DNA of 64,000 nucleotides. Source: a virus. This document shows, piece by piece, positions 11,498 through 29,170 of this stretch. The stretch is taken from positions 32,001-96,000 of IMG/VR virus record IMGVR_UViG_3300044730_002015; one strand, given 5' to 3'. Below the pieces are notes generated by a model that was not told where the DNA came from, did not search any database, and was given only the letters and a program-made list of their open reading frames with translations. A program made the position numbers and the translations under genes. How positions within the stretch are numbered: the stretch's first letter is position 1; each line of letters starts with the position of its first letter.

Positions 11498-12083
11498 TTT
11501 TGGTGAACTGTAGTATTTTGCTAACGGATTCAGATTTACCTTCATCGTCATCAAAGTGTAGATCTAGATCTCTCCAGGATTCCATGGGTTTGAGTTTAAC
11601 TATTTTACCACCAACATCTGTGAAATTACAGTAGTTAGGTGAATTTTCCACCCACCAACCGGTATCGTGGTCCAGAGATCCCGTGCTTTCATTTTCGTTG
11701 TGTAGATAGTGTACCCACTGTCCTTGGTTAGAGGCGATGCCGACATCCGTGACGATCAATGCTGTTTCTGCAATGGTGTTGAGTTTGAGATATATGGCTA
11801 TGCCCACTATCTGATCATAGCACTCATCGGGCAAGTCGATTACTCGGATGCCTTGGCTCTGCAGTGCTGAAATGCGATCCTTCTTAGAAGAATCTACCAA
11901 CACTGCACCGTCTAACACGTGATCAAAAAAATGTCTCCAACGATCAATGGCTATGTTCTGTGCTAGGGAATCTACTGTGTTGGTATAAAACTCTAGGCTA
12001 CAGGCCATTTCCTGTATGCAAAATTGATCGTTGAGAAAAATTCCTACATTGAAGGCATAACTCTTTTTCAGTCTTACATTCAT
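11487..12083 (-). CDS. Hypothetical phage protein
   Basis: 198-aa coupled ORF. Confidence 0.75.
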   Translation of the reverse strand: MNVRLKKSYAFNVGIFLNDQFCIQEMACSLEFYTNTVDSLAQNIAIDRWRHFFDHVLDGAVLVDSSKKDRISALQSQGIRVIDLPDECYDQIVGIAIYLKLNTIAETALIVTDVGIASNQGQWVHYLHNENESTGSLDHDTGWWVENSPNYCNFTDVGGKIVKLKPMESWRDLDLHFDDDEGKSESVSKILQFTKNES

Positions 12084-13084: not shown

Positions 13085-14332
13085 TTAAGGAATATTCCAG
13101 GAAGTGCTGCCGGTTATGGTGTGGCGCACATACGCTCCGGGATTGTCAGTGATCACCGGCCCAGCTGGGCTAAATGACCCGCGTTGGGTACCACCTGGAT
13201 ATTGTAGCACTACCACACCCGATCCACCGGATCCACCTAATCCTCCCCCTGTGTTCACGGAAGGTCGGGTAGCCGCGGGGCTGGGCCCAGGACCTCGGCT
13301 ATTACCTGATCCACCTCCACCTCCACCGGTGTTGGCTGTACCTGAGGTGGCTGGCGCACTCAGTCTATCTGATAAGTTGGTAGGAGTTGAACCAAAAAGT
13401 GCCCCGGAACCGCCCGCTCCGCCACCACCTAATCCGCCGGCACCTCCTTGGTAGCCTTGGCGAGTGGGCGCGGCACCGCCTCCGCCACCTCCACCACCGT
13501 AATAGGAGCCGGTCAAAGGAGAAAAGAAACCACGTCCACCAAAACCGCCTTCGTTGACAAATGACGGCGGATTATAACGACCGCCCCCGCCTGCTCCCGG
13601 CCTAGGCGATGTTGTATTACTTGCACCTCCGCCACCCCCACCGCTGGTCATTGGAAGCCAATACCAACTGGTTGGTTGGCTTGGAGGAAAAGAACTTATT
13701 TGAACTCTTGGAGCTACCCCACCTGGGCCACCGGGATTTCCACCAGGTGCACCGATGCGCGAATTTCCTGCTACAGAATTACTTGCTGGATAGGTCGGGC
13801 TGCGTATTGTAGCAGGCCAGAATTGAGGCGTAGGCGGCCTTTGTATTGATGACGAAACTCCGCCACCCCCGCCGCTACTTGTTGGAATGAACTGGGGTTG
13901 GTTAATTGCTCCTGGAATGCCTTTGCTGGTATTAGAACTTAAAGTTCCATTGGTTCCCCAACCACGACCACCTCCTCCTCCTCCGCCATAAGCAACCAAT
14001 GATGTGCCAACAAAAGTATTTGACCCCGGAGATCCGTCGGTTAAAAGAGCAGGCGAGGCCGGATCAGATGTTTGTGAACCGCCCAAGCCACCAGCACCAA
14101 TGGTTATGGCCACCGATCCCGGACCAGCAAAATTTAACACACCTGTGACAACTCCACCACCACCACCACCACCGCCCCCGCGCTGGCCACCACCACCACC
14201 GCCACCAACCATTAGATAAGTGACATCTGCAGGACTAGGACTAGGACTAGGACTAGGCGAAGGTGGAGCCGGTACAGGCTCCCCGCCGATGAATATCGAA
14301 GTACCTTTAATTTTTACCTTGTTTAATTTCAT
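13085..14332 (-). CDS. Gly/Pro-rich adhesin-like virion protein (polyglycine repeats)
   Basis: YLMVGGGGGGG ... GGSGGSGVVVLQYP ... HTIT frame; PSPSPSPSP linker. Confidence 0.75.
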   Translation of the reverse strand: MKLNKVKIKGTSIFIGGEPVPAPPSPSPSPSPSPADVTYLMVGGGGGGGQRGGGGGGGGGVVTGVLNFAGPGSVAITIGAGGLGGSQTSDPASPALLTDGSPGSNTFVGTSLVAYGGGGGGGRGWGTNGTLSSNTSKGIPGAINQPQFIPTSSGGGGGVSSSIQRPPTPQFWPATIRSPTYPASNSVAGNSRIGAPGGNPGGPGGVAPRVQISSFPPSQPTSWYWLPMTSGGGGGGASNTTSPRPGAGGGGRYNPPSFVNEGGFGGRGFFSPLTGSYYGGGGGGGGAAPTRQGYQGGAGGLGGGGAGGSGALFGSTPTNLSDRLSAPATSGTANTGGGGGGSGNSRGPGPSPAATRPSVNTGGGLGGSGGSGVVVLQYPGGTQRGSFSPAGPVITDNPGAYVRHTITGSTSWNIP

Positions 14333-14338
14333 ATTCGT

Positions 14339-14638
14339 TTATGATATACTTGTGACAGTGAAAGTACCAGGTGATGTAAAGGTATGATACGTATAACCGC
14401 CTGCACTGGTAATTGTTCCATCTGTGGCTTTGGTACTACCAGGGTATCTAACTATCACTGTACCCGAACCCCCAGACGCACCCGAAGTGGGCGTAGTACC
14501 AATTCCGCCACCGCCACCACCGCCACCAGCGCCATCATAGGCTCCACCGCCGGCAACCACAATATAATCTATTGCAAGATGTGGTTCGTCTATGTTGGTG
14601 ACGTTGAAATTTACTAGATTCATTCCTTGGATAATCAT
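14339..14638 (-). CDS. Miniature Gly-rich adhesin paralog
   Basis: N- and C-terminal parts align with 28285-29157 but the central ~190 aa are absent. Confidence 0.7.
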   Translation of the reverse strand: MIIQGMNLVNFNVTNIDEPHLAIDYIVVAGGGAYDGAGGGGGGGGIGTTPTSGASGGSGTVIVRYPGSTKATDGTITSAGGYTYHTFTSPGTFTVTSIS

Positions 14639-14694: not shown

Positions 14695-14730
14695 GGAAAA
14701 TCTGCCCTAGCCAATATGGCAAGGCAGATT
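14695..14730 (-). terminator. Intrinsic terminator after the modification gene block
   Basis: AATCTGCC/GGCAGATT outer stem, GCCA/TGGC inner stem, short U tail on minus. Confidence 0.55.
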
Positions 14731-14756: not shown

Positions 14757-15590
14757 CTACTCTAGGCCCATCTCGCGGCGTATTTTTGTGGCCGAAATAG
14801 CGTGTGTGGCTTCGTCGAATGACTCTTGCTCGATTCGATAGCCTACATCACGTCCGTAGGTGATGTTCACTATGTTGGGCACCAGGATGATTTCGTACTG
14901 TCCTTGATAAACAGGATCTAGATCACGGCGTATAAGTGATTTGACCTGCTCGGCAGCAAAAGGATTGGAGCCTTGCCAGCCCTGGCAGTCACGGATCATG
15001 ATTGCAACCTGACCGGTCTTGGCTATGGCACGCTCAAACAAGGCCCTATGGCCCGCATGCCAAGGCTGCCAGCGACCCAGCATCTGCACAGTTTCTCGCT
15101 GCCAGTCGAACGTGGGCCTGCGACGGTTTTCCAAGATATGGCTGCCCACGAACTCTGCCCACTTTTCTGCTGCCTGTTCAGTGATGCGGAAGTCGTAGAC
15201 TTCGGGTGGGGTGAAAACTTTGTTGGTGTCTTCAAAGCGACCTTTTTCAATGGTGTCAATCCATATGGTCCAATCGGCCTTGAAGTTGTTGCGCATCTCG
15301 GGCAAGGGTGCCACGAAATCCACTATCACAAAATCATTCAAGAATGAATCTGCTAACTCGCGCATACGCAGACTCTGGCGTATGCGTCCTTCGTGTGAGA
15401 AATCCCAGTCATTGTATTTTTTGCGCACATCGTCCGCGTTAATCCATTTGACCTGCGCACGGCTAGCACTGATGTTTTCAGCGTCGGTGTGATACAGATC
15501 GCTGTGTTGTTCCAAATAAGTTTTGAGTCGTTCAGCAAAGTAGGTCTTGCCCGCACCGGGCAAGCCCATGATCAAGATTCTCTGTGCCAT
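14757..15590 (-). CDS. Adenylylsulfate-kinase-like domain fused to HxGH nucleotidyltransferase domain
   Basis: GLPGAGKT, NADDVR, DFSHEGRIRQ, FVAP, FTPP (CysC-like); GRWQPWHAGH, NPF, ISATKIR (HIGH superfamily). Confidence 0.8.
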   Translation of the reverse strand: MAQRILIMGLPGAGKTYFAERLKTYLEQHSDLYHTDAENISASRAQVKWINADDVRKKYNDWDFSHEGRIRQSLRMRELADSFLNDFVIVDFVAPLPEMRNNFKADWTIWIDTIEKGRFEDTNKVFTPPEVYDFRITEQAAEKWAEFVGSHILENRRRPTFDWQRETVQMLGRWQPWHAGHRALFERAIAKTGQVAIMIRDCQGWQGSNPFAAEQVKSLIRRDLDPVYQGQYEIILVPNIVNITYGRDVGYRIEQESFDEATHAISATKIRREMGLE

Positions 15591-15605
15591 GTTGAGTTGG
15601 GTTGA

Positions 15606-15812
15606 TTAGTTTACGATTTGACCTGCAGAGTCTGCAGTTTGATCATTGGCTGCATCTGTTGCTTCTGCTGGAGCCTGCTCAGGGATCTGAGGACGCACCT
15701 GCTCAATGATGTCACGGATCACTGGGCCAAAGCCAGTTTTGATCGGCAGTTCATTGAGTGCTGTCAAGATAGCATTCAGTTGATCTACGGTTAATTTTAC
15801 GGTTACTTCCAT
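15606..15812 (-). CDS. Small hypothetical protein
   Basis: AAGGAG RBS; CTAAGTA motif at 15839-15845. Confidence 0.7.
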   Translation of the reverse strand: MEVTVKLTVDQLNAILTALNELPIKTGFGPVIRDIIEQVRPQIPEQAPAEATDAANDQTADSAGQIVN

Positions 15813-15845
15813 GGACTTCTCCTTGTGGTATAATACTGTACTTAG

Positions 15846-16784
15846 TTAGATAAAAGTAGGTCCCGAATCTTTTGCGTCATCGATCACTTCGCCGAAGAAA
15901 GTCTGTTTGGGCCGAGTGCTGTTACGTGGATGATCTAGATTCTCTTCGTTCAATGGCACATCATCTATTTCACGCCAGAATTCTTGGCCGGCCACTGCAT
16001 CTAATATTTCTTTAGGCAGCACATCTTCGGGATAACTGGCAGTGGATTTCAGCACTTTTCTCACAGCGTGCATGTCTTCAAAGCCATAAACATCTGCATC
16101 ATTTTCCTGATGTATGTTCACTAGATTTTCAAAGTCATGCTCATAGTATGTTTCACCCAAGAAGTCATAAACTTTTTGCATGGTCTCCCTAGGATCAGTG
16201 ACCAAATCTCGATATTCGATAAAGTGTATGTTGGCACGATATCCTTCGGCAAGGGCTTTTTTCAAGCCATCAAAGGACTGGCCCAAGATGCCAGGACCGG
16301 CTATGGCCCTGCAGCGATTCTCGTCATTGAGGGCTATGCCCGATCGTATCAGCATCTGATCCACAAAGTTTATGCGCTCGTTTACTATGTGCGGATTGCG
16401 ATGTATCATGGATATAAAAGACGCCAAGATCTCTGCCACATCACGCACAGGGTACAGCACTTTAGGATGCTCAATACCAAAGTATCCAGGAATGTAGTTC
16501 ATGCGATTGACCCAACTGCGATTCTTTTCAAACACCACAGGTCGGTCTGTGTCAGCATAATACTGATCTATCACAGAAGCGATAAGTTTTTGTCCAAAAT
16601 CATATTTGGGAAATGCCAAAAACAACTCGTCTTGGTTCAGTGCTTCTTCCAACAGCAGCATGGTTGGCACCACTGGTGAACTGGGTCCTGAATAAAATCT
16701 GGGATTCTGATTCAGTATGGCCGACAGCATGGTGCTGCCACTGCGTGGCAGGCCCGACATAAAATAATACTTTTTCTTGGTCAT
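15846..16784 (-). CDS. PAPS-dependent sulfotransferase family protein
   Basis: 5'-PSB motif SGLPRSGSTML, ILNQNP, 3'-PB VRD...S, YRDLVTDP...VYDFLG. Confidence 0.88.
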   Translation of the reverse strand: MTKKKYYFMSGLPRSGSTMLSAILNQNPRFYSGPSSPVVPTMLLLEEALNQDELFLAFPKYDFGQKLIASVIDQYYADTDRPVVFEKNRSWVNRMNYIPGYFGIEHPKVLYPVRDVAEILASFISMIHRNPHIVNERINFVDQMLIRSGIALNDENRCRAIAGPGILGQSFDGLKKALAEGYRANIHFIEYRDLVTDPRETMQKVYDFLGETYYEHDFENLVNIHQENDADVYGFEDMHAVRKVLKSTASYPEDVLPKEILDAVAGQEFWREIDDVPLNEENLDHPRNSTRPKQTFFGEVIDDAKDSGPTFI

Positions 16785-17692
16785 GATTGTCCTTGTAATT
16801 GGTCGGTGGCTGCGATAATTTCTTCAACATTGAAGATCTCTTGATCTTCAGTAAAGGGATACTCGCCTTCGTTGCCGTTGAAGTCAAAGTCAAACAAGTA
16901 ACTGTGCGGCAGTTTGAATTCGTAGGGTATCTTGGTGCAGATGTTGGTGTGCAGGTCATAGCCAAACACCTTGGGACTGGTGCCATTCCACAACACCACA
17001 GAAGGCCGTCTCAGTGCTGCCGCTGTGTGTTGCAAACAACTGTCAATCAGGATGTTTTTTTGGCTGTGCAGCAACAGGCTAAACAGTTCCATGGTGCTGA
17101 GGAATTTCTGTGGGGTAGCAAACACATGGTGAGCACCCTTGAGTTTGGGTGAGTTTATTTTGGTCACTTGATAAATGGTGTAGTCTTTGCGATAGTGATC
17201 TACCAGAGCCTGTCCTATGTTTTCCGGCATGTCTCGGGTCCAGGAATAGGCCTTGGCGTCAGTGGTCATCATTCCACCATTGGTATGCAGTACCATGATG
17301 GGTTTGGTGCCGCGTATCCAATACTTCCTGCTGAGATCCTGTTGCAACTTGTTGAGTTTGACCACAGGAGTTTCGCCTTTGTATTCTATGCCATACATCT
17401 TGCACCAGGTCTGTACCAATGGTAATTTTTGGTGTATATGATCTGTGGTAAAGTAAGGTTCATGATGGAATATCAGAGAATCTTGATCTTTGATGTAATT
17501 TTGATAAAAGTAACTTGTACCACCAATGGTGTACACACGGTCTACAAAATCTAGATTGGTAAACACATCGGGATAGGCGCACACCACTATGAGCTTGCGA
17601 TCTGGATGATTGTTCTTGATGGTACGGGCCACGGCTGTGGCTGCCACGTGTTTGCCTAAACCACCTTGTACATGGAAAATGCTGTATTTCAT
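16781..17692 (-). CDS. GT-B glycosyltransferase (GT9/heptosyltransferase-like)
   Basis: GGLGKHVAAT N-terminus; IDSCLQHTAAAL..PSVVLW C-terminal motif. Confidence 0.75.
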   Translation of the reverse strand: MKYSIFHVQGGLGKHVAATAVARTIKNNHPDRKLIVVCAYPDVFTNLDFVDRVYTIGGTSYFYQNYIKDQDSLIFHHEPYFTTDHIHQKLPLVQTWCKMYGIEYKGETPVVKLNKLQQDLSRKYWIRGTKPIMVLHTNGGMMTTDAKAYSWTRDMPENIGQALVDHYRKDYTIYQVTKINSPKLKGAHHVFATPQKFLSTMELFSLLLHSQKNILIDSCLQHTAAALRRPSVVLWNGTSPKVFGYDLHTNICTKIPYEFKLPHSYLFDFDFNGNEGEYPFTEDQEIFNVEEIIAATDQLQGQS

Positions 17693-19002
17693 TTGAGTCC
17701 TTGTGTATGTCTTTCCAACACAGTAAAGCCATTGTTGTTAGTTTTATGTATGCGGAAGCGCCAGTGCGGATTTTTTATTAGGAATTCAATTATGGCAGTG
17801 AGCAGGCCTTGGCGATCACGACCATCTTCGCCGCACAGGCCAAAGGTGTAAGTGTCATGGAATGCTATGTATCGTCGGGCCTTGTTGCCATGCAAGGCCA
17901 ATTCTTTCTGTAACTGTTCGTAGGTATGCAAGGTGTCAATAAACAGCAAATCCATGGGTTCGACTTCTATATCCAGCACATTGGCTTTGATATATTGAAC
18001 AGACTTTCCCTGTGCCTGGGCTTTGAGGAATAGTTCGCGCACCTTAGGATGCAACTCAATATCAAAACTCAACAATTCAACATCGCTGGCCAAGAATGCA
18101 CGAGTACTCACGCCGGTCCTGACTCCAAACTCCACCACTGTCTTGCACTCTTGGGCCAACTCGTATAGTATGTGTACATTTTCATTGATGTCGCTCACAT
18201 TGGTACGAGCCCAGTGATATTCCTGATCGAATACCGTGGCATTTGTGTTATTGAGCTTTTTTGCCAGCCGCTGCCTACTGTACATATTAATCATGTTCTG
18301 GGGAATATCCCAGTTTTTGCTGTTTTTAAAATGTCCGTAGGCCAAGAGATTTTTACTGTCTAGTTCTATGCGGCAGTTGATCTCACTGTCGGGATCATTG
18401 AACTTGGTCAGCGTTTCTGAGATGGTGCCTTTTATGCGGTTGCTGTTGATGGCAAACACACGTTTGGCTCGTTGTGCAAAATAGTCGTCACCGTACCATA
18501 CCTGATACAAACTGGGAATCTCTTGATAAGATTGTTTCATCATGAACATACAGATACCAAATGCCCAGGCCTGGCCACCAATGGGCTTGGTGTCATCGTA
18601 ATTTAATCTAACAATTTCTTCTGCTGTGTCAATGACATCGTCTATGCGATAATTGTTTTGTCTGCCGCGTAGATTCACACCAATGAGATCGCCGGCTTGA
18701 AATGGAAAATCGCTGACCATGTCAATCACGTCGGCTGATACAACAATGTCATCGTTTATGATGCCCAGGACATGTGACTGAGCCCGATAGTAACCTTCGT
18801 TCCAGGCAGGGTTCACAAAGATATTTTTATTGTATGATACTAACTCTACTTTCACATGGTTCAGCACGGACCATTGGGGTCTAGATTTACGATTGTTATC
18901 AATCACTATGATCTTGGCTATTTTGTCGTGATTGGCGTAGATTTCTAGCGCCTGATCAAAGTCCTTGACCATCCACATGGTGGGAATCACTACATCTATC
19001 AT
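17689..19002 (-). CDS. GT-A (GT2-like) glycosyltransferase fused to class I methyltransferase
   Basis: VVIPTMW, IIVIDN, VNPAWNEG, INDDI, WYGDD; then VVEFGVRTGVST, DLLFIDTLHTY, FHDT. Confidence 0.85.
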   Translation of the reverse strand: MIDVVIPTMWMVKDFDQALEIYANHDKIAKIIVIDNNRKSRPQWSVLNHVKVELVSYNKNIFVNPAWNEGYYRAQSHVLGIINDDIVVSADVIDMVSDFPFQAGDLIGVNLRGRQNNYRIDDVIDTAEEIVRLNYDDTKPIGGQAWAFGICMFMMKQSYQEIPSLYQVWYGDDYFAQRAKRVFAINSNRIKGTISETLTKFNDPDSEINCRIELDSKNLLAYGHFKNSKNWDIPQNMINMYSRQRLAKKLNNTNATVFDQEYHWARTNVSDINENVHILYELAQECKTVVEFGVRTGVSTRAFLASDVELLSFDIELHPKVRELFLKAQAQGKSVQYIKANVLDIEVEPMDLLFIDTLHTYEQLQKELALHGNKARRYIAFHDTYTFGLCGEDGRDRQGLLTAIIEFLIKNPHWRFRIHKTNNNGFTVLERHTQGLK

Positions 19003-19658
19003 AGTTTTTTGTCTTGTTTGAAATCGCCTTTGTACACTTTGTTGCCAATGTGAGAAACTGTGTAGTGTGGATTGACCCAGATATCATAGCCCAGTTCCAA
19101 TATCTTTCGGCTGAGCGTGATATCTTCTCCAACAAATCCACCATTCAATGAACTGTATTCGCAGATGTTGCGCAATTTTTTGCCACGGAATTCTAGTTCT
19201 GGATTGCTGGTCCAAAGATCCTCAACTACTTTGCGAGACATTTTGAGAAAACCAGTGCCGGTTTTTTGTACTTTGAAATAACCATCTGCGGGATCTTTTT
19301 CCATGTTTTGTGGGATCCAGATGTTGTAGGTCAAGGGTTCTTTGTCGCCTTTGTTGACTACTGGTACTGTGATCACATCCTTGTTGGACTTGACAATGTC
19401 AATCAAAACCTGCGCGGTCCAGTACTCATCATCGTCGATGAATACCATGGCGTCATAACCATCTTTGTAGGCAAGATTAAACAGTTCATTCCTGGCCATG
19501 GGCAAGATGCTTTCGTTGGCCAAAAATATGCAGCGTATGTCAATGTTGTGCGCCAGGCCCAGTTTGATTGATTCGCAGAGACTATGCACAAAATAGGCAT
19601 CTACCTTTTGATCCAGGCAGGGAGTTGCTACCAAAACTCGTTTTGTTGTTTTTTCCAT
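18999..19658 (-). CDS. GT-A fold glycosyltransferase-like protein
   Basis: VLVATP, ARNEL, FIDDD, GTGFL, GEDI, SHIG. Confidence 0.8.
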   Translation of the reverse strand: MEKTTKRVLVATPCLDQKVDAYFVHSLCESIKLGLAHNIDIRCIFLANESILPMARNELFNLAYKDGYDAMVFIDDDEYWTAQVLIDIVKSNKDVITVPVVNKGDKEPLTYNIWIPQNMEKDPADGYFKVQKTGTGFLKMSRKVVEDLWTSNPELEFRGKKLRNICEYSSLNGGFVGEDITLSRKILELGYDIWVNPHYTVSHIGNKVYKGDFKQDKKL

Positions 19659-19721
19659 AAAAAAAGGATCCTTGGGATCCTGGTATACGACCCAGGGTTA
19701 ATATTATGTATCAACCCTGGG
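19659..19721 (-). promoter_or_regulatory. Tandem hairpins between the Cys-rich fibre and the glycosyltransferase block
   Basis: CCCAGGGTT/AACCCTGGG (19691-19721) with an AT-rich loop; AGGATCC/GGATCCT (19665-19681) followed on minus by a T-run abutting the ATG. Confidence 0.5.
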
Positions 19722-19735
19722 CGCGAGTGGAAAAA

Positions 19736-22700
19736 TTATTGGCTTTCTAGTGCTGCTATGCGTGCCTTGAGACTTTCAATTTCTGTGGAAAGTTCATTCA
19801 CAGCATTGACCAATATGGGAACCATGTAATCACTGGTGATCTGCAGTTTGTCGGGATTGTCTGCAGATACCACCACTGGTGAATCGCCTTCTGCGGCCAG
19901 GACGTTTTGAGCACTGAATCCATAGCGTCGTTTGCCATCGGGATCAGTGATACAGCCTGACTCGCGATCTTTGAAACTATACTCAATGGGTTCGATGCTT
20001 TGCAGGAAACCTCGGCCATGTGGCACACGACCATAGATACATTTGTCTCTGCAGTCTGACACAGCAGTCCACGCAATCTGTATCTGAGCACAGGTATGCG
20101 CATTGTTACCCATGATGATACGATTACATTCTGTGGTGATGTTGGCCAAACCAACCGAAGTCAAACCTGTATTACAACCTATGAGAATGTTATTGCAACC
20201 AAAGGAATTGTTACAGCCAGCGTTGGGCCCTATAAAAATGTTATAGCCACCTGATGTATTAAGCTGTCCAGCATATCTACCAATGAATACCGAATTGCAA
20301 CCAAATGTGGTTTTGAAGCCAGCCTTCATACCAATAAAGGTATTGTAGCATCCGCTGACATTGCATTTTCCAGCGCAGAATCCCAGGTAAGAATTGTATC
20401 GACCGAATGTATTACACTGACCGGCCTGGAATCCAATAAAGAGGTTATGGGTACCGGAGACGTTGGCACAGCCAGCCATGTGTCCAATAAAATGATTTCC
20501 GTTACCGGTGGTGTTACAATTGCCAGCTTGGAAGCCCAGAAACACATTATAACTTCCGGTGGAGTTTTTGCGGCCAGCGCCACTACCAATAAAGATGCCA
20601 GTGCCAGTGGTATTGCATACTCCAGCAAGACATCCAATAAAAATATTATCATAACCTTGATTATTTTGACCGGCCTGGGTACCCAGCATGACGGTATATG
20701 AGCCGGTATTATATTCACCTGCTCGCTGTCCTATGTTTACATTACATTTAGAATAATTGCCAGCAGCCATCGAACCGCCGCCGGCATATTGGCCAATACT
20801 GATGTTTACCGTTGTATAGCAACGTCCTGCGAATTTTCCAATGGCAATTGTTCCGCCTGCGTACTGACCCCTAAATGCTGCGCAGTGACCTGCTGCAAAA
20901 AGATCAACACTTTGATTACATTTACCAGCACAAAAACCAAAAATAATGTTATGGCTACCACAAAGTCCATTCATACCACTGCAGCAGAAGAACAGATTAC
21001 AGGTACCAGCACAATATGTTATGGGTCCTGCACCTGCTGCTGCACCATTCACAAACAATCCAGAAGCTGTGACACAAAGTCTTGCTGTACCTGACCCATT
21101 GTCGCCAATGATTACAGTATTGGAGAGGCCGGCTGTTCCCGCCAAACTTGTACCAGCACCAATGATCACATTGCACACACCAGTGGTTACTGCGCACCCT
21201 GCATTGCAACCAATAAAGGTATTTTTAACGCCAGTGGTGTTGCCGTAGCCAGCACATCTGCCAGCGAAGAAGTTGTATGTACCAATGCTATTACAAAAAC
21301 CTGCGGACCTGCCAAGGATAGTATTATCACTGCCGCTGGTACTGTTATAACCAGCACACTGACCAGCCACAAAGTTGTGAGTACCGGTACCGTTACAGTA
21401 ACCAGCCATTCTGCCCATAAAAATATTATAACCACCTGTGGTAGTAAAATTCCCAGCGCAGTTACCAACCATAAAGTTATGACTGGCAGAGGTTTGGCAA
21501 CGTCCCGCATAATAGCCCAATATTGTGTTATAACTACCGGTATTTCTTAATCCTGCTTGTAGCCCCACAAAGAAATTGCCGCTGGCTGTGGTATTATAAA
21601 AACCGGCGCAGTGGCCAAGGAAAACGTTAAAGCTACCAAAGGTGTTGCAAAAACCTGCAGACATACCAATAAAGTTATTGCCGCGTCCGGTGGTGTGATT
21701 AGCACCTGCATTACAACCAATAAACGTATTGCATCTTCCGGTGGTGTTGCAGCAGCCGGCATTGCGTCCTATAAAGACATTGTGACATCCAGCTGTATTG
21801 CGGAAACCAGCACATGCACCGGCAAAGAAGTTGAACTCGCCATAATAACCACCAGCAAAGCCATTGCAGGTACCTGCACAAAAACCTGCAAAAAAGTTGT
21901 TGTTGCCACTACCACCATTGCCCGAAATACAGCTGGTGATGTTTCTTGTGCCACAGGCCACAAATACACTGCTTCCGCCTACAGCGGAACCGTTTACAAA
22001 CAATCCCGAAGCCGTTACGCACAATCTTGCTGTGCCTGACCCATTGTCACCAATGATCACTGTGTTGCTCAACCCAGCTGAGCCTGCCAATGCTGCACCT
22101 GTACCTATGATTACGTTACATATACCTGTGGTTACTGAGCAGCCTGCATCTACTCCTGCCATAACGTTGCAACTACCGCTGTTTAGAAAATAACCTGCAC
22201 CACCGCCTATAAGTACATTCCTTGTTCCAAACGATACATATCGTCCAGCGGCGCCACCGATTAATGTATTAACATCACCCGAAGTTATACTACAACCTGC
22301 GCAGGCTCCAATGACTATGTTATAGGAACCGCTGGCATTTGCTGCACCTCTACCAGCAGTGTCACCAATAAAGATATTTCGACAACCACGAACATGATTA
22401 CATCCAGAATACCTACCAACATAGAGGTTATAGTTGCCAGAGACATTACATTGGCCTGCACAACTGCCCAGGAATATATCATGCGTTCCGAATTCGTTAC
22501 TACGACCAGCAAACTGGCCAACAAAGATGTTATGACTTGTAATTGTGGTAAAGCCAGCACATTGACCAGCGAAGAAATTATGATTTCCACTGCAATTGCC
22601 GGCGCCCGCACAGTTGCCAAAAACTATGTTGTTTGCACCAGTAATATTTTTACATCCCGCACAGGCGCCTATAAAGACATTGTCTGCGCCAGTGGTGTTG

Positions 22701-25030
22701 GCTGAACCCGCACACTGCCCTGCAAAGAAATTGTCTGTGCCAGTGCCGCCATTGCCCGAGATGCAGCTCACGATATTGCGTGTGCCACAAACCAACATGG
22801 CACCACCGCCACCGCCCACCAATGTGCCATTCACATACAGGCCAGTGGCGTTGGCGCACAATCTCGTGGTTCCACCTGCGGAAATGACCACAGTACAGCA
22901 AAGACCTGCGCTACCTGCATAATTACCAATTATAGTGTTCTCAAATCCCGATACTACCGAACATCCAGCACCCAAGCCAATAAAGATATTGCAAGCACCA
23001 GTGGTGTTGCGTCGACCTGCATATGCTCCGATAAATTGATTGTTGCTGCCAATGGTGTTGCAATAACCGGCGCCTCTTCCAATAAAGGTGTTGCAAACAC
23101 CAGTGGTGGTGTATCGACCTGTACTGCAACCCACAAAGAAGTTGTGACAACTGGCACTGGCAACCAAGCAGCCGGCATATTTTCCAATGAATGTATTGTA
23201 TTGGCCTGCGGTGCCGTTGCTGCCACCACCATAGATAACTGTTCCAGAGGAATTGAAAGGCGAGGATAACTGTGATCCATTCACATATAATCCAGTGTCG
23301 TTGATGCACAACCTTGGAAAGCCGTTGGTCCTTTCGCCGATCATTACTATGTTCTGCATGCCTGCTGTGCCAACTAAGCAACTGGCAGCAGACCCAATTA
23401 TGACATTACATACACCTGTTGTTACAGCACAGCCAGCATTGCAACCAATGAATATATTTTTAGCACCAGTGCTGTTACAACAACCTGCATTGGCACCAAC
23501 GAAGATGTTGTTGGTTCCAATCGTGGTCGCAAATCCAGCATAACGACCAATGGCGATGTTACAACTGCCAGAGGTATTTGCGCGGCCAGCACTGACTCCA
23601 ACAAAAAAGTTGTGGCAGCCAAAGGTATTGAAGATGCCAGCAGCACGACCAATCATGGTGTTGTATGTGCCACTGGTGGTGGACTGACCTGCATAGGCTC
23701 CAGCGAAGAAATTGTTGGTACCAGTGGTAATAAAAGAAGCAGCATAACTACCAATAGCTATGTTATGGACACCGGTGGTAATGCAACGTCCACTGTTTTG
23801 ACCTATTAAGACATTGTTTGAGCCAATGGTGTTGCAGCAGCCGGCATTGCGACCAATAAACGTATTAAAGGTGCCGGTGGTGGTGTTGCGACCAGCACAT
23901 GCACCGGCAAAAAAGTTATCTGTGCCAGCTGTGCCCAGTCTGCCGGCATCTTTGCCGATATAGATGTTATTTGTACCAGTGAGATTACAAAAGCCAGCAT
24001 ATTGTCCAAGAAATACGTTGCATGATCCAAAGGTGTTTCTGGCACCAGTACACTCTCCAATGAATACGTTTCTTTGTCCGCTAGCATTGCCAAAGCCTGA
24101 ATCTTTGCCAATAAAGACATTGTAACTGCCAGTGATATTGCAACGTCCAGCCTGGCGACCAATGTAAACGTTGTATTGGCCAATGGTATTCTGGCAACCA
24201 GCTAGTGGTCCAATGAATACATTCTCTTTGCCGGTGGTAGTAGAAAACCCAGCGCAGCCTCCAATAAAAGTATTACAACTACCAACAGTGTTATTTCTAC
24301 CGGCATACAGTCCGATAAAAGTATTTTGACTTCCTGTGTTATTTAGACAGCCAGCGCGGAATCCAATAAATGTGTTATAGCAACCAGTGCTGATGGCACG
24401 TCCGGCGTCTCTACCAATAGATATGTTATCTTTTGCGCCAACGCAGTTCTCTGCGCCTGCCCCGGCATAGGTTCCAATACCGATATTATTGCAAAATCCT
24501 GCTGCGAATCTGCCTGCGGCATATCCAATAAAGACATTGCATGAACCGGTGGTATTGCACTGACCTGCAAAAGCACCTATCATATTGTTGTAACTACCAG
24601 TACTTAAATTAAATCCAGCAGCCCAACCCAAGGCATTGTTATTATTGCCAGTGGTGTTGCACATACCTGCGCAATGACCAGCAAAGAAATTTCTACTGCC
24701 AATGGTGTTGCATTGACCAGCATACTGTCCAATAAAGATATTGCGACTGCCAGTGGTGTTGAATCGACCAGCATATTGGCCCAGGAACGTGTTATAGCAA
24801 CCTGTTGTGGTGCGACCACCAGCCGCGCGGCCGATCATGAGATTGTGACTACCAATGGTCAAGCAAGCACCAGCGTTGGGACTGATCACAGTGTTGTATG
24901 TGCCAGTGGTTAGGGCTGCACCGGCACCGTTGCCAGCAAAAAAGTTGCTGCCAGATTTATTGTAATTGGTTACATTACATAAATTTCTGCTGTCATCTAC
25001 TACTGTGGTTCCTGCGACTTTGATAGCCAT
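19736..25030 (-). CDS. Cys-rich tail fibre with ~18-aa beta-roll repeats and C-terminal peptidase S74 intramolecular chaperone
   Basis: Repeats N-x-F-I-G-x-x-A-G-x-x-N-T-T-G; SDCRDK, YGFSAQ, MVPILVNAVNEL plus coiled coil. Confidence 0.85.
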   Translation of the reverse strand: MAIKVAGTTVVDDSRNLCNVTNYNKSGSNFFAGNGAGAALTTGTYNTVISPNAGACLTIGSHNLMIGRAAGGRTTTGCYNTFLGQYAGRFNTTGSRNIFIGQYAGQCNTIGSRNFFAGHCAGMCNTTGNNNNALGWAAGFNLSTGSYNNMIGAFAGQCNTTGSCNVFIGYAAGRFAAGFCNNIGIGTYAGAGAENCVGAKDNISIGRDAGRAISTGCYNTFIGFRAGCLNNTGSQNTFIGLYAGRNNTVGSCNTFIGGCAGFSTTTGKENVFIGPLAGCQNTIGQYNVYIGRQAGRCNITGSYNVFIGKDSGFGNASGQRNVFIGECTGARNTFGSCNVFLGQYAGFCNLTGTNNIYIGKDAGRLGTAGTDNFFAGACAGRNTTTGTFNTFIGRNAGCCNTIGSNNVLIGQNSGRCITTGVHNIAIGSYAASFITTGTNNFFAGAYAGQSTTSGTYNTMIGRAAGIFNTFGCHNFFVGVSAGRANTSGSCNIAIGRYAGFATTIGTNNIFVGANAGCCNSTGAKNIFIGCNAGCAVTTGVCNVIIGSAASCLVGTAGMQNIVMIGERTNGFPRLCINDTGLYVNGSQLSSPFNSSGTVIYGGGSNGTAGQYNTFIGKYAGCLVASASCHNFFVGCSTGRYTTTGVCNTFIGRGAGYCNTIGSNNQFIGAYAGRRNTTGACNIFIGLGAGCSVVSGFENTIIGNYAGSAGLCCTVVISAGGTTRLCANATGLYVNGTLVGGGGGAMLVCGTRNIVSCISGNGGTGTDNFFAGQCAGSANTTGADNVFIGACAGCKNITGANNIVFGNCAGAGNCSGNHNFFAGQCAGFTTITSHNIFVGQFAGRSNEFGTHDIFLGSCAGQCNVSGNYNLYVGRYSGCNHVRGCRNIFIGDTAGRGAANASGSYNIVIGACAGCSITSGDVNTLIGGAAGRYVSFGTRNVLIGGGAGYFLNSGSCNVMAGVDAGCSVTTGICNVIIGTGAALAGSAGLSNTVIIGDNGSGTARLCVTASGLFVNGSAVGGSSVFVACGTRNITSCISGNGGSGNNNFFAGFCAGTCNGFAGGYYGEFNFFAGACAGFRNTAGCHNVFIGRNAGCCNTTGRCNTFIGCNAGANHTTGRGNNFIGMSAGFCNTFGSFNVFLGHCAGFYNTTASGNFFVGLQAGLRNTGSYNTILGYYAGRCQTSASHNFMVGNCAGNFTTTGGYNIFMGRMAGYCNGTGTHNFVAGQCAGYNSTSGSDNTILGRSAGFCNSIGTYNFFAGRCAGYGNTTGVKNTFIGCNAGCAVTTGVCNVIIGAGTSLAGTAGLSNTVIIGDNGSGTARLCVTASGLFVNGAAAGAGPITYCAGTCNLFFCCSGMNGLCGSHNIIFGFCAGKCNQSVDLFAAGHCAAFRGQYAGGTIAIGKFAGRCYTTVNISIGQYAGGGSMAAGNYSKCNVNIGQRAGEYNTGSYTVMLGTQAGQNNQGYDNIFIGCLAGVCNTTGTGIFIGSGAGRKNSTGSYNVFLGFQAGNCNTTGNGNHFIGHMAGCANVSGTHNLFIGFQAGQCNTFGRYNSYLGFCAGKCNVSGCYNTFIGMKAGFKTTFGCNSVFIGRYAGQLNTSGGYNIFIGPNAGCNNSFGCNNILIGCNTGLTSVGLANITTECNRIIMGNNAHTCAQIQIAWTAVSDCRDKCIYGRVPHGRGFLQSIEPIEYSFKDRESGCITDPDGKRRYGFSAQNVLAAEGDSPVVVSADNPDKLQITSDYMVPILVNAVNELSTEIESLKARIAALESQ

Positions 25031-25041
25031 CTTCGTTGTCC

Positions 25042-26889
25042 TTAACTAGGCTTTGTATTTTTCAACTGATCAATCTGTTGCTGCTGTTCTTTGATGGCCT
25101 CGATCAGTATGGCTATCAAAGGCAGATAAGACACTGTCAATCCGCGTTCTTCTGAGTGTACCAACTCGGGTAACACTTGGATTAAATCTTGGGCTATGAT
25201 ACCATAGCTCTTGTTACCAGTTTCTTTCCACTTGAAACTCACGCCCTGTATGCTATTTATTTTGCTCAAGGCCGATTTGATGTTCTTGACATTTTTCTTG
25301 AAATTACGGTCTGAAGAAGTGTTGACATCCGTGGCTGTGAGTGTGCCTGAACTGGGGTTGAATGTGAGTTTGGTTGACGATATGGTGGCAGTGGTCAGCG
25401 AGCCCGAAGTGGCAGTGGCAAACACCGGATAGTAGTTGCTGTTGGTTGTGGTATCATCGGCTATGGTGGCGCCACCGCTGGAAATGCCTGTGAGCTGGCT
25501 GCCGTTGCCCAGTAGATATGAACCAGAAATGTTGCCCGAAGCGTTGATATTGCCAGTGACTGTCAAGATATTGGCAATATTAGCACCGTGGCTGAGTGCC
25601 ATGGTGTTGCTGGTACTGTTGTAGAAGAATGTGATGTTGCCACCAGAGGAGATATTGCCAATCTGTAGGCCGGCACCGTTAAGATCTGACAAAGTGGCAT
25701 TAGCATTGGCAGCAACGATGATGTCTTTGTCTGCTAAGAATATATTTGCAACATTGATTTCAGTTGTGGTACCTTCAACCCGCAGGTTACCTAGTATTAC
25801 TGCATTATGGGTAACCTGAAGATTACCAGCATTGACATTTGCAGAAACATTAAGATACTGACCGCTTACATTACCAAGAGCATTCACGTTGCCAGGATTG
25901 ACGTTGCCGGCAAGATTTATATCAGTTAATACTTGCCCTGTGAGATTGACGTCTTTGACATCCAACAGTGTGCCAACATTAAGATTATCAGTTGTTATAA
26001 GAGAAGTTACTGCAATATTACCAGCGGCGATATTACCTGTAGTAACAATATTGCTGGTCAATGAACCACTGGCCAAGTAGTTGGCTACTATTGCGTTGCT
26101 ATAACCTGCGGGTAGACCTGTTATAAATGCACCGTTGCCCAATAGATATGCAGCTGTTAGGTTACCTGTGGTACTGAAGCCACCAGCGGTAATGTTGGCG
26201 CTGGCTGTGACCGTGCCCGATCCATCCAGTTCCACTGTGGTGACTGCATCACCTCTTTTTACTCTTATCACTCCGCCCGTGCCACCCGAGAATGAATCTA
26301 AGGATGTGACATTTGCCGCGCCACCTATGATAGCTCCGCTGGTGATTAGGTTGCCACCAGTGATATTGCCCGAGGTGTCAATGTTGCCTGTAAGGGTGGT
26401 ACCTTCGGTGACCACTGTGTTGCCTGCAACTGTCAATTGTCCGTCTGCAATGCCCACCGATACGCCACCAATATAAATTGTGTTGTTGGACACATACAAA
26501 CTGCGCCATTGCAGTGTGTTAGAGCCAAGATCTGTGGTAGCATTGGATTGTGGTAAAACGTAAGCGGCAGTGATGTTGGCAGTGGTGATGATGTTGCCGG
26601 TCAATGAAACCAAATTGCCGGTATATGTGGGCAGGTATGCAGCCACATTTGAGTTGCTGTAGGTGCTGCCGCTCACAATGCCAGTCAAGAAAGCACCGTT
26701 GCCTAATATATATGTTCCCGAAATGTTACCGCTGCTGGTAATATTGCCTGTGGCAGTAATTACCCCAGTGACAGCGATGTTACCCGAATTGGCTATGCCA
26801 CTTTGGCTTAGGTCAAGCAAACTTCCCACAGGGATTTCTTGAATCTGTGAACTAGTAGTGTTAGCGATCAGTGGAAAATAATTGGCCAT
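25042..26889 (-). CDS. Tail fibre protein with peptidase S74 chaperone domain
   Basis: GNIT-type repeats; SSDRNFKKN, GVSFKWK, GIIAQD, LIEAIKE. Confidence 0.85.
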   Translation of the reverse strand: MANYFPLIANTTSSQIQEIPVGSLLDLSQSGIANSGNIAVTGVITATGNITSSGNISGTYILGNGAFLTGIVSGSTYSNSNVAAYLPTYTGNLVSLTGNIITTANITAAYVLPQSNATTDLGSNTLQWRSLYVSNNTIYIGGVSVGIADGQLTVAGNTVVTEGTTLTGNIDTSGNITGGNLITSGAIIGGAANVTSLDSFSGGTGGVIRVKRGDAVTTVELDGSGTVTASANITAGGFSTTGNLTAAYLLGNGAFITGLPAGYSNAIVANYLASGSLTSNIVTTGNIAAGNIAVTSLITTDNLNVGTLLDVKDVNLTGQVLTDINLAGNVNPGNVNALGNVSGQYLNVSANVNAGNLQVTHNAVILGNLRVEGTTTEINVANIFLADKDIIVAANANATLSDLNGAGLQIGNISSGGNITFFYNSTSNTMALSHGANIANILTVTGNINASGNISGSYLLGNGSQLTGISSGGATIADDTTTNSNYYPVFATATSGSLTTATISSTKLTFNPSSGTLTATDVNTSSDRNFKKNVKNIKSALSKINSIQGVSFKWKETGNKSYGIIAQDLIQVLPELVHSEERGLTVSYLPLIAILIEAIKEQQQQIDQLKNTKPS

Positions 26890-27371: not shown

Positions 27372-28277
27372 TCAAGCAGAACTAACCTGGAAAGTGCCCG
27401 ATGAGGTAAAAGTATGCACTGTGTTGCCGCCCACTGTGGATACGGTACCACCGGTGGCCTTTTGCGAGCCAACATAACTGAAGATCACTATGCCCGGACC
27501 ACCTGTTCCCGCTGCTGCAGGAGAGCCACCCAAGCCACCACCACCTCCGCCCCCGGTGTTGACATTGCCCGGAGTTGACGCAAATGCAGGTGCCAATCCA
27601 CCAGCGCATCCGCCTTTGCCACCACCGCCTAGTCCGCCTGATGAAAATGAAAAAAGTTGTGTAGGAAGTTGGGTAGCGGCACCTCCGCCACCACCACCTC
27701 CGTAGTAAGTTGATGTGCCGGTGATACTGCTGGTAGATCCAGCACCACCTGGGCCACCCAGACGGGCGCCGGTGGTAGCGGGCGATGCTGTACCAGCCGA
27801 ACCCGCTGCGCCGATGGGTCCTCCTCCTCCGCCTCCGCCGCCAGCTCCATCAGTGTTGGGCAAAAATCGTTGTCCAGCACCGCCGGGGCCACCAAACGTG
27901 CCAGTACCAACGGTAGCATCTGCGTTGTAACCGCCTTGCCCGCCGCCACCTGCTCCCGGTGTGGCCGCTGTAGCTCCAGCAAATGAACTGGCACCACCGC
28001 CACCACCGCCCAAAGAACTCACTGTGACACCGCTACCTGTGATATCAGTGTTGGCTCCGCGTGTGCTGGCGCCGCCACCTCCGCCAACTGTGACCACATA
28101 AGGTCCCGTGGACACAGTGGTCACACCTTCTAGCACACGGCCTCCGCCACCTCCGCCACCTTGGTCATCGCCGCCACCGCCACCTGCACCTACCGCGAGA
28201 TATCGTACAGTAAAACTCTGTGGAAAGTACTGGTTGTAAAGCGTGGTATTACTAATGGTTATGCCAGTGAATAACAT
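27372..28277 (-). CDS. Gly-rich adhesin-like protein
   Basis: YLAVGAGGGGG ... GGPGIVIFSY ... HTFTSSGTF. Confidence 0.75.
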   Translation of the reverse strand: MLFTGITISNTTLYNQYFPQSFTVRYLAVGAGGGGGDDQGGGGGGGRVLEGVTTVSTGPYVVTVGGGGGASTRGANTDITGSGVTVSSLGGGGGGASSFAGATAATPGAGGGGQGGYNADATVGTGTFGGPGGAGQRFLPNTDGAGGGGGGGGPIGAAGSAGTASPATTGARLGGPGGAGSTSSITGTSTYYGGGGGGGAATQLPTQLFSFSSGGLGGGGKGGCAGGLAPAFASTPGNVNTGGGGGGGLGGSPAAAGTGGPGIVIFSYVGSQKATGGTVSTVGGNTVHTFTSSGTFQVSSA

Positions 28278-28284
28278 AATTTTC

Positions 28285-29157
28285 CTATACGGTAGAGGTC
28301 AGTGTAAATGTACCAGGTGCTGTGAATGTATGATATGTATAGCCACCTGAACTGGTAATGACACCACCTGTACCCTTGGTTCCGCCCTCGTATCTAACTA
28401 TGACTGTGCCGGGTCCTCCTGTGCCACCTGCATTGGGTGAAGTGCCTGTTCCGCCAGCACCACCTCCACCACCGCCACGACCGGGTGTGGCTGCAACCAC
28501 ACCACCACCGCTGCTGCCCCCGGTACCGGCACCTGATGTGGGTGTACCTCCCCCGATGCCACCTGAACCCGCGGAAGATCCTCCCCCACCGCCAGCACCA
28601 TAGATCACACCATCTACCCAGGTATAGCCTGCGCCACCGTCGCCGCCAGGGCCTGTGCCGCTGCCGCCCACACCTGGAGATCCTGCACCACCAGCACCAC
28701 CGCCACCGCCACCGCCGTTACGAGCACTGACTGCTCCGGGATTGCCCTGTGGGGGACTTGTGGGTGGTGTGTTGCCTGAGCCGGCTGTTTGACTGGCATA
28801 AGCACTACCAGCACCGGCACCACCGCCCGATGCTCCCGATGTGCCTGAACTGTTTTGGCTGCCACCACCGCCACCACCGGCTGCCGTCAATCCAAAACCT
28901 GTGCTGCTGTCACCAGAGCCTCCAGAGGATGGAGAGGTTGTCCGGCCAGCACCGCCGGTGCCCACAGTGACAGGATATGCAGCCGGAGCCGAAGATACCT
29001 GAGTTGATCCGGTTAGCACACCACCACCGCCACCACCGCCGGCAGCATCAAATCCACCGCCTCCACCAGCACCAACCACTATGTATTCTAATAACACATT
29101 GGGTACAAAGGTATTAATCATTGTGGCATTTTGTACAGTGGTTTCTGAAATTATCAT
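28285..29157 (-). CDS. Gly-rich adhesin-like protein
   Basis: Start re-called at MIISET; YIVVGAGGGGG ... GGPGTVIVRY ... HTFTAPGTF. Confidence 0.75.
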   Translation of the reverse strand: MIISETTVQNATMINTFVPNVLLEYIVVGAGGGGGFDAAGGGGGGGVLTGSTQVSSAPAAYPVTVGTGGAGRTTSPSSGGSGDSSTGFGLTAAGGGGGGSQNSSGTSGASGGGAGAGSAYASQTAGSGNTPPTSPPQGNPGAVSARNGGGGGGGAGGAGSPGVGGSGTGPGGDGGAGYTWVDGVIYGAGGGGGSSAGSGGIGGGTPTSGAGTGGSSGGGVVAATPGRGGGGGGAGGTGTSPNAGGTGGPGTVIVRYEGGTKGTGGVITSSGGYTYHTFTAPGTFTLTSTV

Positions 29158-29170
29158 GTTGGGTCCTTGA

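Follow-up and report, generated by a model that had tools for sequence, protein, structure and literature searches.

TibC and Aah, bacterial glycosyltransferases (GTs) with the GT9 fold, heptosylate serine residues of the repeat adhesins TibA and AIDA-I. Enzymes of this bacterial autotransporter heptosyltransferase (BAHT) class are marked by an N-terminal beta-barrel, a thumb formed by a beta-hairpin, and an iron finger of four cysteines needed for the dodecamer (PMC4358343). Here we describe a fibre gene and an adjoining enzyme cassette in a 64,000-nucleotide stretch of viral DNA (hereafter the window), which covers bases 32001-96000 of the 169.5-kb linear IMG/VR virus record IMGVR_UViG_3300044730_002015. 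The cassette encodes candidate glycosyltransferases, one with a fused methyltransferase, together with a sulfotransferase and a probable source of the sulfate donor 3'-phosphoadenosine 5'-phosphosulfate (PAPS). We consider it most likely, with moderate confidence, that the cassette decorates the phage's own cysteine-studded fibre during virion assembly. TibC and Aah with their adhesins would be the closest working analogy: in both cases the gene for a cytoplasmic enzyme with the GT9 fold lies beside that for a long repeat adhesin of the beta-helix type, and TibC hyper-glycosylates many residues of the repeats. The phage protein differs in length (303 aa against about 406 aa) and has neither the N-terminal beta-barrel nor the four-Cys iron finger that help to define a BAHT. 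TibC modifies serine, whereas cysteine is the distinguishing residue in the phage system, where the acceptor would be a virion fibre. The TibC system uses a heptose donor, whereas no heptose pathway was found in the phage record (no match to GmhA, TIGR00441, or to HldE domain I, TIGR02198, in a record that is perhaps half of the genome).

Other described systems share parts of this arrangement. Mycobacteriophages reportedly encode glycosyltransferases beside their structural genes that glycosylate virion proteins in the cytoplasm, as Freeman and colleagues are said to have described in 2023; the targets are reportedly the C-termini of capsid and tail-tube proteins, not fibres. That system is said to use different enzymes, without a sulfotransferase, a PAPS supply, a methyltransferase fusion, or a link to cysteine. 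In chlorovirus PBCV-1, the multi-domain glycosyltransferase A064R carries a fused methyltransferase and, without recourse to host machinery, builds a methylated glycan on a protein of the virion. PBCV-1 is a eukaryotic virus with an N-linked, unsulfated capsid glycan, and its likeness to the present cassette is one without shown homology. The glycocin S-glycosyltransferases SunS and ThuS (GT2, GT-A) place sugars on the Cys thiols of peptides, so bacterial S-glycosylation is feasible. Their substrates are small peptides and their fold is GT-A, whereas the phage gene that tracks cysteine encodes a GT-B/GT9 fold; PDB searches with the two GT-A-like cassette proteins returned no sequence match to either. 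Finally, an adenylyltransferase and an adenosine 5'-phosphosulfate (APS) kinase share one chain in human PAPSS1 (1x6v) and in Aquifex and fungal fusions of Sat with APS kinase (2gks, 1m8p), a group in which both domain orders are represented. The 277-aa fusion of the phage cassette resembles these. Unlike the bifunctional PAPS synthases, which have 530-630 aa, it has a NadM-like half of about 110 aa with no PF01747 match and a kinase lid that is partly missing. A literature search of incomplete coverage returned no paper about phage fibres that carry sulfate, nor any about a PAPS synthase of this type, with one half resembling NMN (nicotinamide mononucleotide) adenylyltransferases (NMNATs).

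Table 1. Features of the fibre and enzyme region, in order of transcription. Positions are those of the window.
Feature	Length	Position	Strand	Remarks
S74 tail fibre	615 aa	25042..26889	-	0 Cys; PF13884 E 3.6e-16; many PHROG tail-fibre families
Cys-rich repeat fibre	1764 aa	19736..25030	-	phrog_4636 tail spike 4e-114; beta-roll-type repeats
Two hairpins between fibre stop and GT-A start		19665..19717	-	within 77-nt spacer
GT-A-like glycosyltransferase candidate	219 aa	18999..19658	-	DDDE (DxD-type) motif
Fusion, GT2-like and class-I S-adenosylmethionine-dependent methyltransferase	437 aa	17689..19002	-	
GT9-fold (GT-B) transferase	303 aa	16781..17692	-	AlphaFold2 (AF2) pLDDT 82
PAPS-dependent sulfotransferase	312 aa	15846..16784	-	5'-phosphosulfate-binding (5'-PSB) loop PRSGST
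Small open reading frame (ORF)	68 aa	15606..15812	-	own ribosome-binding-site-like AAGGAG
Candidate mini PAPS synthase	277 aa	14757..15590	-	APS kinase (1-158) and HxGH nucleotidyltransferase (164-277)
Hairpin then ATTTT, 3' of last enzyme gene		14702..14727	-	
HldE-domain-II / TagD-like cytidylyltransferase	172 aa	9477..9995	-	TIGR02199 1.7e-22, under cut-off; phrog_7878

The features are collected in Table 1. All fibre and enzyme genes of the region lie on the minus strand, and the ORF coordinates confirm the gene set, order, and strand of the original prediction, as well as the three ATGA start/stop overlaps that link the genes for the 219-, 437-, 303-, and 312-aa proteins.

The 1764-aa fibre is the sole large Cys-rich protein of the record. 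It contains 109 Cys residues (6.2%) and 18% Gly, while the other large structural proteins have 0-0.5% Cys. It is built of 79 units of 17 residues with the pattern N-x-F-I-G-x-x-A-G-x-x-N-T-T-G-x-x. The cysteines are confined to variable repeat positions: 91 of the 109 fall at positions 6, 7, 10, 11, 16, and 17, and framework positions never carry one. When the fibre is aligned with homologues of 38-43% identity, about 30% of the Cys columns are common to both. At the remaining columns, the homologues have Ser, Tyr, Arg, Phe, or Asn opposite the fibre Cys, each one base change away. Cysteines at variable positions, some 70% of them unconserved, are therefore unlike a fixed disulfide scaffold, and their pattern fits exposed sites that turn over quickly. 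The fibre had been described as a Cys-rich S74 fibre. Its Cys-richness is real, but its own S74 match is weak (the C-terminal 164 aa match PF13884 at E 0.0036 and 18 bits, below the cut-off of 22), and the strong S74 domain belongs to the Cys-free neighbour encoded directly upstream. An SDCRDK motif at the C-terminus and homology to S74-type spikes, for example of the SPO1 family, suggest that this end of the Cys-rich fibre is a divergent member of Peptidase_S74. N-glycosylation of the fibre was considered and rejected. N-x-S/T sequons show no enrichment in it: their density is 2.8 per 100 aa, whereas of five further fibres in the window four have 3.1-4.2 and one has 1.2.

We compared the locus with relatives retrieved from both sides of the fibre-enzyme junction. 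The enzyme-side set holds the best 80 of 312 loci retrieved with the GT9 gene (64-79% identical), and the fibre-side set the best 80 of 336 loci retrieved with an alignment of the fibre C-terminal domain (36-75% identity). A converse test used 53 distinct fibres with at least 3 kb of downstream sequence. In the GT9-found loci, a sulfotransferase gene adjoins the GT9 gene in 80 of 80 cases, in either order, and wherever the sequence suffices the enzymes have a repeat-fibre homologue at their side. The fibres of these loci have a median Cys content of 2.6%, with a median of 5.7% in the richest 300-aa segment; the corresponding values for other large Gly-rich ORFs in these same loci are 0.23% overall and 0.33% (Mann-Whitney 2e-13). 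Long fibres that appear poor in Cys have it concentrated in their C-terminal 600 aa or so. In the converse test, a segment with at least 2% Cys is present in 29/29 fibres with a GT9-like neighbour and in 2/24 without one (Fisher 6e-13). The same holds for the distant subset (11/11 with and 2/23 without; 3e-7), where the GT9-like protein is only 22-25% identical and its gene starts at most 30 nt from the fibre stop. Cys is the residue that differs most between GT9-positive and GT9-negative fibres, and the homologous spike of Prochlorococcus phage P-SSM2, which has no GT9-like neighbour, contains 1.1% Cys.

These comparisons bear on two of the original claims. Linkage between the enzyme block and the fibre is present in relatives, with adjacency of fibre and GT9-like gene kept down to 22-25% enzyme identity. 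The expectation that Cys-rich fibres would co-occur with the block and Cys-poor relatives would lack it is borne out for the GT9-fold gene; the sulfotransferase accompanies the GT9-fold gene only in nearer relatives. Since the association with Cys is also found in distant pairs that lack the sulfotransferase, the GT9-fold gene is the core partner of Cys-bearing fibres. The sulfotransferase, GT-A, GT2-methyltransferase, and PAPS genes are additions to this core. Fibre and cassette may also lie apart. In one 260-kb relative (L100, G001:C1:49000-66000), a Cys-rich fibre (4.8%) is encoded 11 kb upstream of the conserved five-gene cassette. Between the two lie several Gly-rich genes and another sulfotransferase gene (34% identical), together with a GT-A paralogue and unknown genes including one for a protein of 608 aa.

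The glycosyltransferase types originally assigned (GT-A, GT2 with methyltransferase, and GT9) are each supported, but the GT9 match falls below its Pfam cut-off and the GT-A candidate has no Pfam match. The 219-aa candidate matches phrog_1574 (5e-19) and the glycosyltransferase family phrog_34859 (1.7e-4), its Atlas (language-model) neighbours are Anp1/Glycos_transf_2 proteins, and it is kept at 64-77% identity in related cassettes. Residues 290-383 of the 437-aa protein match Methyltransf_24 with 28.8 bits (cut-off 26.3), and its N-terminal half is GT2-like solely by its language-model neighbours, 80% of which are Glycos_transf_2. Some relatives have just the GT half of about 250 aa. Single-sequence PDB searches with the 219- and 437-aa proteins gave nothing significant. 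The 303-aa protein matches PF01075 with 18 bits (cut-off 22), over a C-terminal stretch only. The top Foldseek matches of its AF2 model are GT9 structures, namely 3tov (6.3e-11), 1psw (WaaF; 2.9e-9), TibC (2.7e-8), and WaaC (5e-8). The segment IDSCLQHAAAAL of the 303-aa protein aligns with the nucleotide-sugar motif of WaaC, and an alignment profile of the family matches WaaC at E 0.04 on this motif alone, leaving the WaaC N-terminus unaligned. The N-terminal catalytic Asp of WaaC is Asp13; near the N-terminus of the phage family the invariant motif is GGxGK, with K14. No Cys is invariant in the family alignment, and the model begins directly with a Rossmann strand. Hydrophobic segments are absent from every cassette enzyme, and the enzymes are, as judged from their sequences, soluble. 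Family searches found no flippase, polymerase, ligase, or lipid-carrier gene in the cassette.

The sulfotransferase call stands firmly. The 312-aa protein scores well above the cut-offs of both Pfam profiles (PF13469, 57.6 bits and 2.8e-15 with a cut-off of 27; PF00685, 52.1 bits and 7.8e-14 with a cut-off of 22), and it matches phrog_27463 at 7e-67. The phosphosulfate-binding loop PRSGST is present at residues 13-18, in the stretch behind the match to TPST1/2 and the CurM sulfotransferase. Its PDB matches cover the N-terminal part only and are to tyrosylprotein sulfotransferases and the CurM sulfotransferase, with NoeE at 22.8 bits. The profiles and loop make its predicted identity as a sulfotransferase solid; its acceptor might be a carbohydrate, a protein tyrosine, or a small molecule.

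The 277-aa fusion probably makes PAPS, and would then be a compact PAPS synthase. It matches APS_kinase (PF01583) with 28.1 bits (cut-off 21.1). Its AF2 model (pLDDT 93) finds APS kinases at the top of a Foldseek search, and human PAPSS1 (1x6v) aligns with it over 251 of 277 residues. A VIA search, which is independent of Foldseek, gives Z 15-18 for APS kinases, 14 for the next family, and 10.2 for the human nicotinamide-riboside kinase NRK1. When a profile of 47 diverse members was compared with the PDB, the N-terminal half matched APS kinases (1e-15 to 1e-12) and the C-terminal half archaeal-type NMN adenylyltransferases (1e-11 to 1e-8). This profile never matches the catalytic domain of Sat; 1m8p and 1i2d were matched via their kinase-like domain only. 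Among the 47 members, R56 never varies, and F64, R69, and Q72 hardly do. From a correspondence made by eye, we take these to be the positions that contact APS in APS kinases, where they are the Arg of DGDxxR, the Phe of GFS, and the Arg and Asn after it. The first Asp of the DGD motif is replaced by Ala or Asn, and the lid region is shortened. The small half has the conserved motifs GRxQPxHxGH, YGRDVGY, and ISATxIR (here GRWQPWHAGH and ISATKIRR). It is a NadM-like domain of about 110 aa (VIA Z 10.3-10.5 over 110 residues), and its NCBIfam NMNAT scores of 28.6 and 26.6 bits are far under the cut-offs of 127 and 181.

The distribution of the fusion is in keeping with sulfate activation. In a library at 50% identity, the mini domain is N-terminal to a canonical APS kinase in one protein (P0243, PF01583 5.7e-63) and to another APS kinase in a second (P0189), and the two domains are therefore joined in both orders. 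About 30 of 80 phage loci with the fusion have, on the same strand and at most 5.3 kb upstream, a sulfotransferase gene that belongs to the same broad family but is often only 23-34% identical. Homologues of the fusion that are 45-60% identical are chromosomal in SAR11, SAR86, and SAR116 bacteria (L268-L347), with examples in a complete SAR86 chromosome (L307, CP097973.1) and in Ca. Pelagibacter sp. HIMB1495 (L338). In SAR86-type loci the sulfotransferase gene ends at most 30 nt from the fusion. Close homologues in metagenomes number more than 8000. Sat-type ATP sulfurylase (PF01747) has no match anywhere in the phage record at E 0.01 and is found in 0/5 SAR11/SAR86 genomes with the fusion, where PF01507 matches are weak only. 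An APS kinase without a source of APS would be pointless, and the simplest reading is therefore that the small HxGH domain is a sulfate adenylyltransferase. The self-contained pathway that was first proposed thus keeps a likely PAPS source of its own, from the APS-kinase fold, the CysC fusions, the sulfotransferase neighbours, and the lack of Sat in the five bacterial genomes; the building, methylation, and sulfation of a glycan would be further, hypothetical steps.

The gene junctions suggest how the cassette might be expressed. The second hairpin of the spacer reads GGATCC-CAA-GGATCC, followed by T7 and then by the ATG of the first enzyme gene (19681-19665), and is terminator-like. The enzymes had been placed directly downstream of the fibre; they are adjacent and on the same strand, but this hairpin separates them from it. 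The 19665-19717 structure is possibly an attenuator that lowers enzyme expression relative to that of the fibre. A hairpin recurs in this spacer in many relatives (L105, L111, L116, L117, and L158), with different stems and AT-rich loops (TATATA/TATAAT-like), and may represent a conserved attenuator, a processing site, or a promoter-in-hairpin. The gene after the 14702-14727 hairpin has its own ATAAATA motif, so that the cassette is bracketed by hairpins. A late-promoter-like ATAAATA is also present at 26912, 23 nt before the start of the 615-aa fibre gene. The T4 late promoter TATAAATA has 0 matches in the window; the shorter ATAAATA occurs ahead of some structural genes. The sigma-70 and terminator scans as a whole gave site counts no higher than in shuffled sequence. 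The slot of the 68-aa ORF is occupied in relatives by a 94-aa ORF, an HldE-II/TagD-like cytidylyltransferase gene, or both.

The analysis shows which genes are present, which folds they encode, that their linkage is conserved, and the statistics given above; from these we infer the acceptor and each chemical step of the following scheme. Late transcription of the fibre operon would start from the ATAAATA-type site at 26912, and a small share of the transcripts would pass the hairpin into the cassette. Catalysts are needed in lower amounts than the fibre, which fits partial read-through. The soluble enzymes would then act on the fibre repeats in the cytoplasm. The GT9-fold enzyme would add the first sugar at exposed variable repeat positions, either to Cys or to Ser, Thr, or Tyr. 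The GT-A and GT2 enzymes would lengthen the chain, the fused methyltransferase would cap it, and the sulfotransferase would sulfate it with PAPS made locally by the 277-aa fusion. Both reactions would take place on the fusion: APS would form from ATP and sulfate at the mini HxGH domain and then be turned into PAPS by the kinase domain. Parts of the scheme differ in strength. The chance that the acceptor is the fibre, or else a neighbouring protein of the virion, is about even. Linkage of the glycan to Cys is rather unlikely. The most specific version, where the GT9-fold enzyme S-glycosylates exposed fibre Cys and the glycan is methylated and then sulfated with PAPS from a third, NMNAT-derived class of ATP sulfurylase that SAR11 and SAR86 use instead of Sat or CysDN, is unlikely to hold in all its parts.

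Several observations weigh against decoration of the fibre by the cassette. One group concerns the linkage itself. All loci come from the hypervariable host-recognition region, where unrelated genes also travel together, and the distant pairs of GT9-like gene and fibre lack a sulfotransferase of the cassette family. On a tree of the fibre C-terminal domain the GT9 trait changes about 6 times, with 2 pairs on well-supported branches. The correlation is phylogenetically clustered and rests on about 2-6 independent events, and with only 2 supported pairs an independent-pairs sign test has no power to reach significance. So small a number of events would suit co-inheritance without a shared substrate, where the cysteines have a role within the fibre, for example in inter-turn disulfides, metal sites, or redox-sensitive cross-links, and the product of the enzymes is a different one. 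Cys aside, GT9-positive fibres stand apart in their Gly, Asn, and Pro content and so form a distinct repeat subtype, and two Cys-rich fibres (L206 and L245) have no GT9 gene in their available flanks. We nevertheless regard co-inheritance as improbable. The restriction of Cys to variable positions, with about 70% unconserved, is unlike structural disulfides, and the association is found in two separate well-supported clades and spans fibres that are 30-75% identical with cassettes of differing make-up.

A second group concerns the enzymes and their expression. Characterised GT9 enzymes mostly act on lipopolysaccharide (LPS). The comparison with known protein glycosyltransferases that had been suggested for the 303-aa model does place TibC among its best matches, but Foldseek ranks the LPS heptosyltransferases equally. 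No heptose-pathway genes were found in the record, the terminator-like hairpin stands between fibre and enzymes, and motif scans found no promoter-like motif before the enzyme genes. The cassette could instead remodel the host surface, acting on LPS core, O-antigen, capsule, or extracellular polysaccharide during infection, possibly to block superinfection, to keep progeny from re-adsorbing to lysed cells, or to mask receptors; its place beside the fibre would then follow from a shared hypervariable region. WaaC and WaaF, both LPS heptosyltransferases, have the GT9 fold; in phage S-SRM01 a sulfotransferase is grouped with a glycosyltransferase and an epimerase for sugars; the cassette has an HldE-II/TagD-like gene associated with it; and the hairpin would uncouple enzymes and fibre. 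In the literature, the carbohydrate genes that aquatic myoviruses carry are usually interpreted as serving to modify the cell wall or surface (PMC12801897). Remodelling of the host is a real contender, though on balance somewhat unlikely. It leaves unexplained both the tracking of fibre Cys by the GT9-like gene and why that gene, at 22-25% identity, still starts no more than 30 nt from the fibre stop. The cassette has no membrane, flippase, polymerase, or ligase genes and its enzymes are all soluble, and the GT9-fold protein, besides scoring under the GT9 Pfam cut-off, has fewer residues than the LPS enzymes.

The remaining points concern the fusion. NMN adenylyltransferases, rather than Sat, are closest to the mini domain. 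The small siphophages of the Sanovirus group carry the fusion (35-40% identical) between a gene with a NADAR domain and a DNA methyltransferase gene, near a cysteine dioxygenase-like gene, for example in Stenotrophomonas phage vB_SmaS_Bhz60 (L264, 15492-16232). These loci have no annotated sulfotransferase, and supply of PAPS to a sulfotransferase does not explain their context. The fusion might thus be an NAD-salvage enzyme, a nucleoside or nicotinamide-riboside kinase joined to an NMN adenylyltransferase as in NadR but in reverse order, with the sulfotransferase drawing on host PAPS. Its C-terminal domain is nearest to NadM-type NMNATs by both sequence and structure, the NADAR-domain gene adjoins it in Sanovirus phages, and NAD-synthesis genes are known from phages (PMC12801897). 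We judge NAD salvage to be quite unlikely. The kinase half is APS-kinase-like in its profile (1e-15) and in its VIA scores relative to NRK1, and keeps R56, F64, R69, and Q72. Other proteins join the mini domain to canonical CysC. In length it falls about 60 residues short of NMNATs, it has sulfotransferase neighbours in phages and SAR86, and the fusion is present in genomes without Sat. PAPS synthesis therefore remains our preferred function for it. In other phages (L039, L045, L071, L029, and similar loci; clusters 8, 9, 12, and 14), the fusion shares a fixed operon with genes for a TctC-type binding protein and for proteins of 200-220 aa. The latter have the P-loop-like sequences GxPGSxWS or GPQGSGNHLW and are weakly sulfotransferase-like at best (Pfam E 3.8e-4, hhalign probability 8-66%).

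Should the fibre be decorated, the recognition of receptors by a large group of aquatic T4-like phages would hinge on a post-translational coat that is invisible to sequence-based host prediction. This coat would be sulfated, anionic, and possibly thiol-linked, and phage-encoded virion glycosylation would reach well beyond mycobacteriophages. S-glycosylation of fibre Cys by the GT9-fold enzyme, if true, would be the first case of a virus particle modified in this way. The 277-aa fusion would represent a route to activated sulfate that has gone unrecognised and would bear on the synthesis of sulfated compounds in SAR11 and SAR86, which are abundant ocean bacteria.

The source of the DNA is an uncultured freshwater T4-like myovirus with PA5oct-like replication genes. 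The stretch is present in lake, river, and lagoon metagenomes from many studies, and its relatives carry T4-type neck, sheath-stabiliser, and terminase genes. CheckV estimates the record to be 48% complete, which suggests a full genome near 350 kb. A megablast search of the whole block against phage records gave no match. The clamp loader (8496-9413) is closest to its counterparts in PA5oct, a jumbo phage of Pseudomonas (50.5%), and in Agrobacterium phage Atu_ph07 rather than to those of cyanophages. An earlier label of cyanomyovirus, based on the presence of pstS and MazG and on a sulfotransferase that matches Synechococcus phages, was dropped in view of this clamp loader and of a search of the record for psbA, which gave no match.

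The block was originally said to be embedded among fibre and adhesin genes. Fibre genes do lie on one side of it, but on the 3' side there are only two Gly-rich genes before those for MazG, a Cpn10-like protein, a cytidylyltransferase-like protein, and the clamp loader. Five Gly-rich paralogues in all (28-34% Gly, Pfam Gly_rich_2) flank the fibre and enzyme block at 13085-14638 and 27372-30265 of the window, one of them shrunk to 99 aa. A homologue of the 172-aa HldE-II/TagD-like gene (cluster 10) sits within the cassette itself, just before the kinase fusion, in six related loci (L006, L013, L031, L053, L055, and L061). The 172-aa enzyme might provide a nucleotide-activated donor. In P-SSM2 (L104), Cys-rich proteins are again paired with sugar enzymes. 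There, PSSM2_304 (22499-23569) and PSSM2_306 (24298-25365), each of 355 aa with 10% Cys and 15% Gly, are encoded just upstream of genes for a Nol-like carbamoyltransferase, an HldE-II-like protein, and a carbohydrate kinase. At 11003-11554 of the window there is also a stand-alone ORF of 183 aa, whose sole match is to a stretch of about 45 residues in DnaE-type polymerase III alpha subunits.

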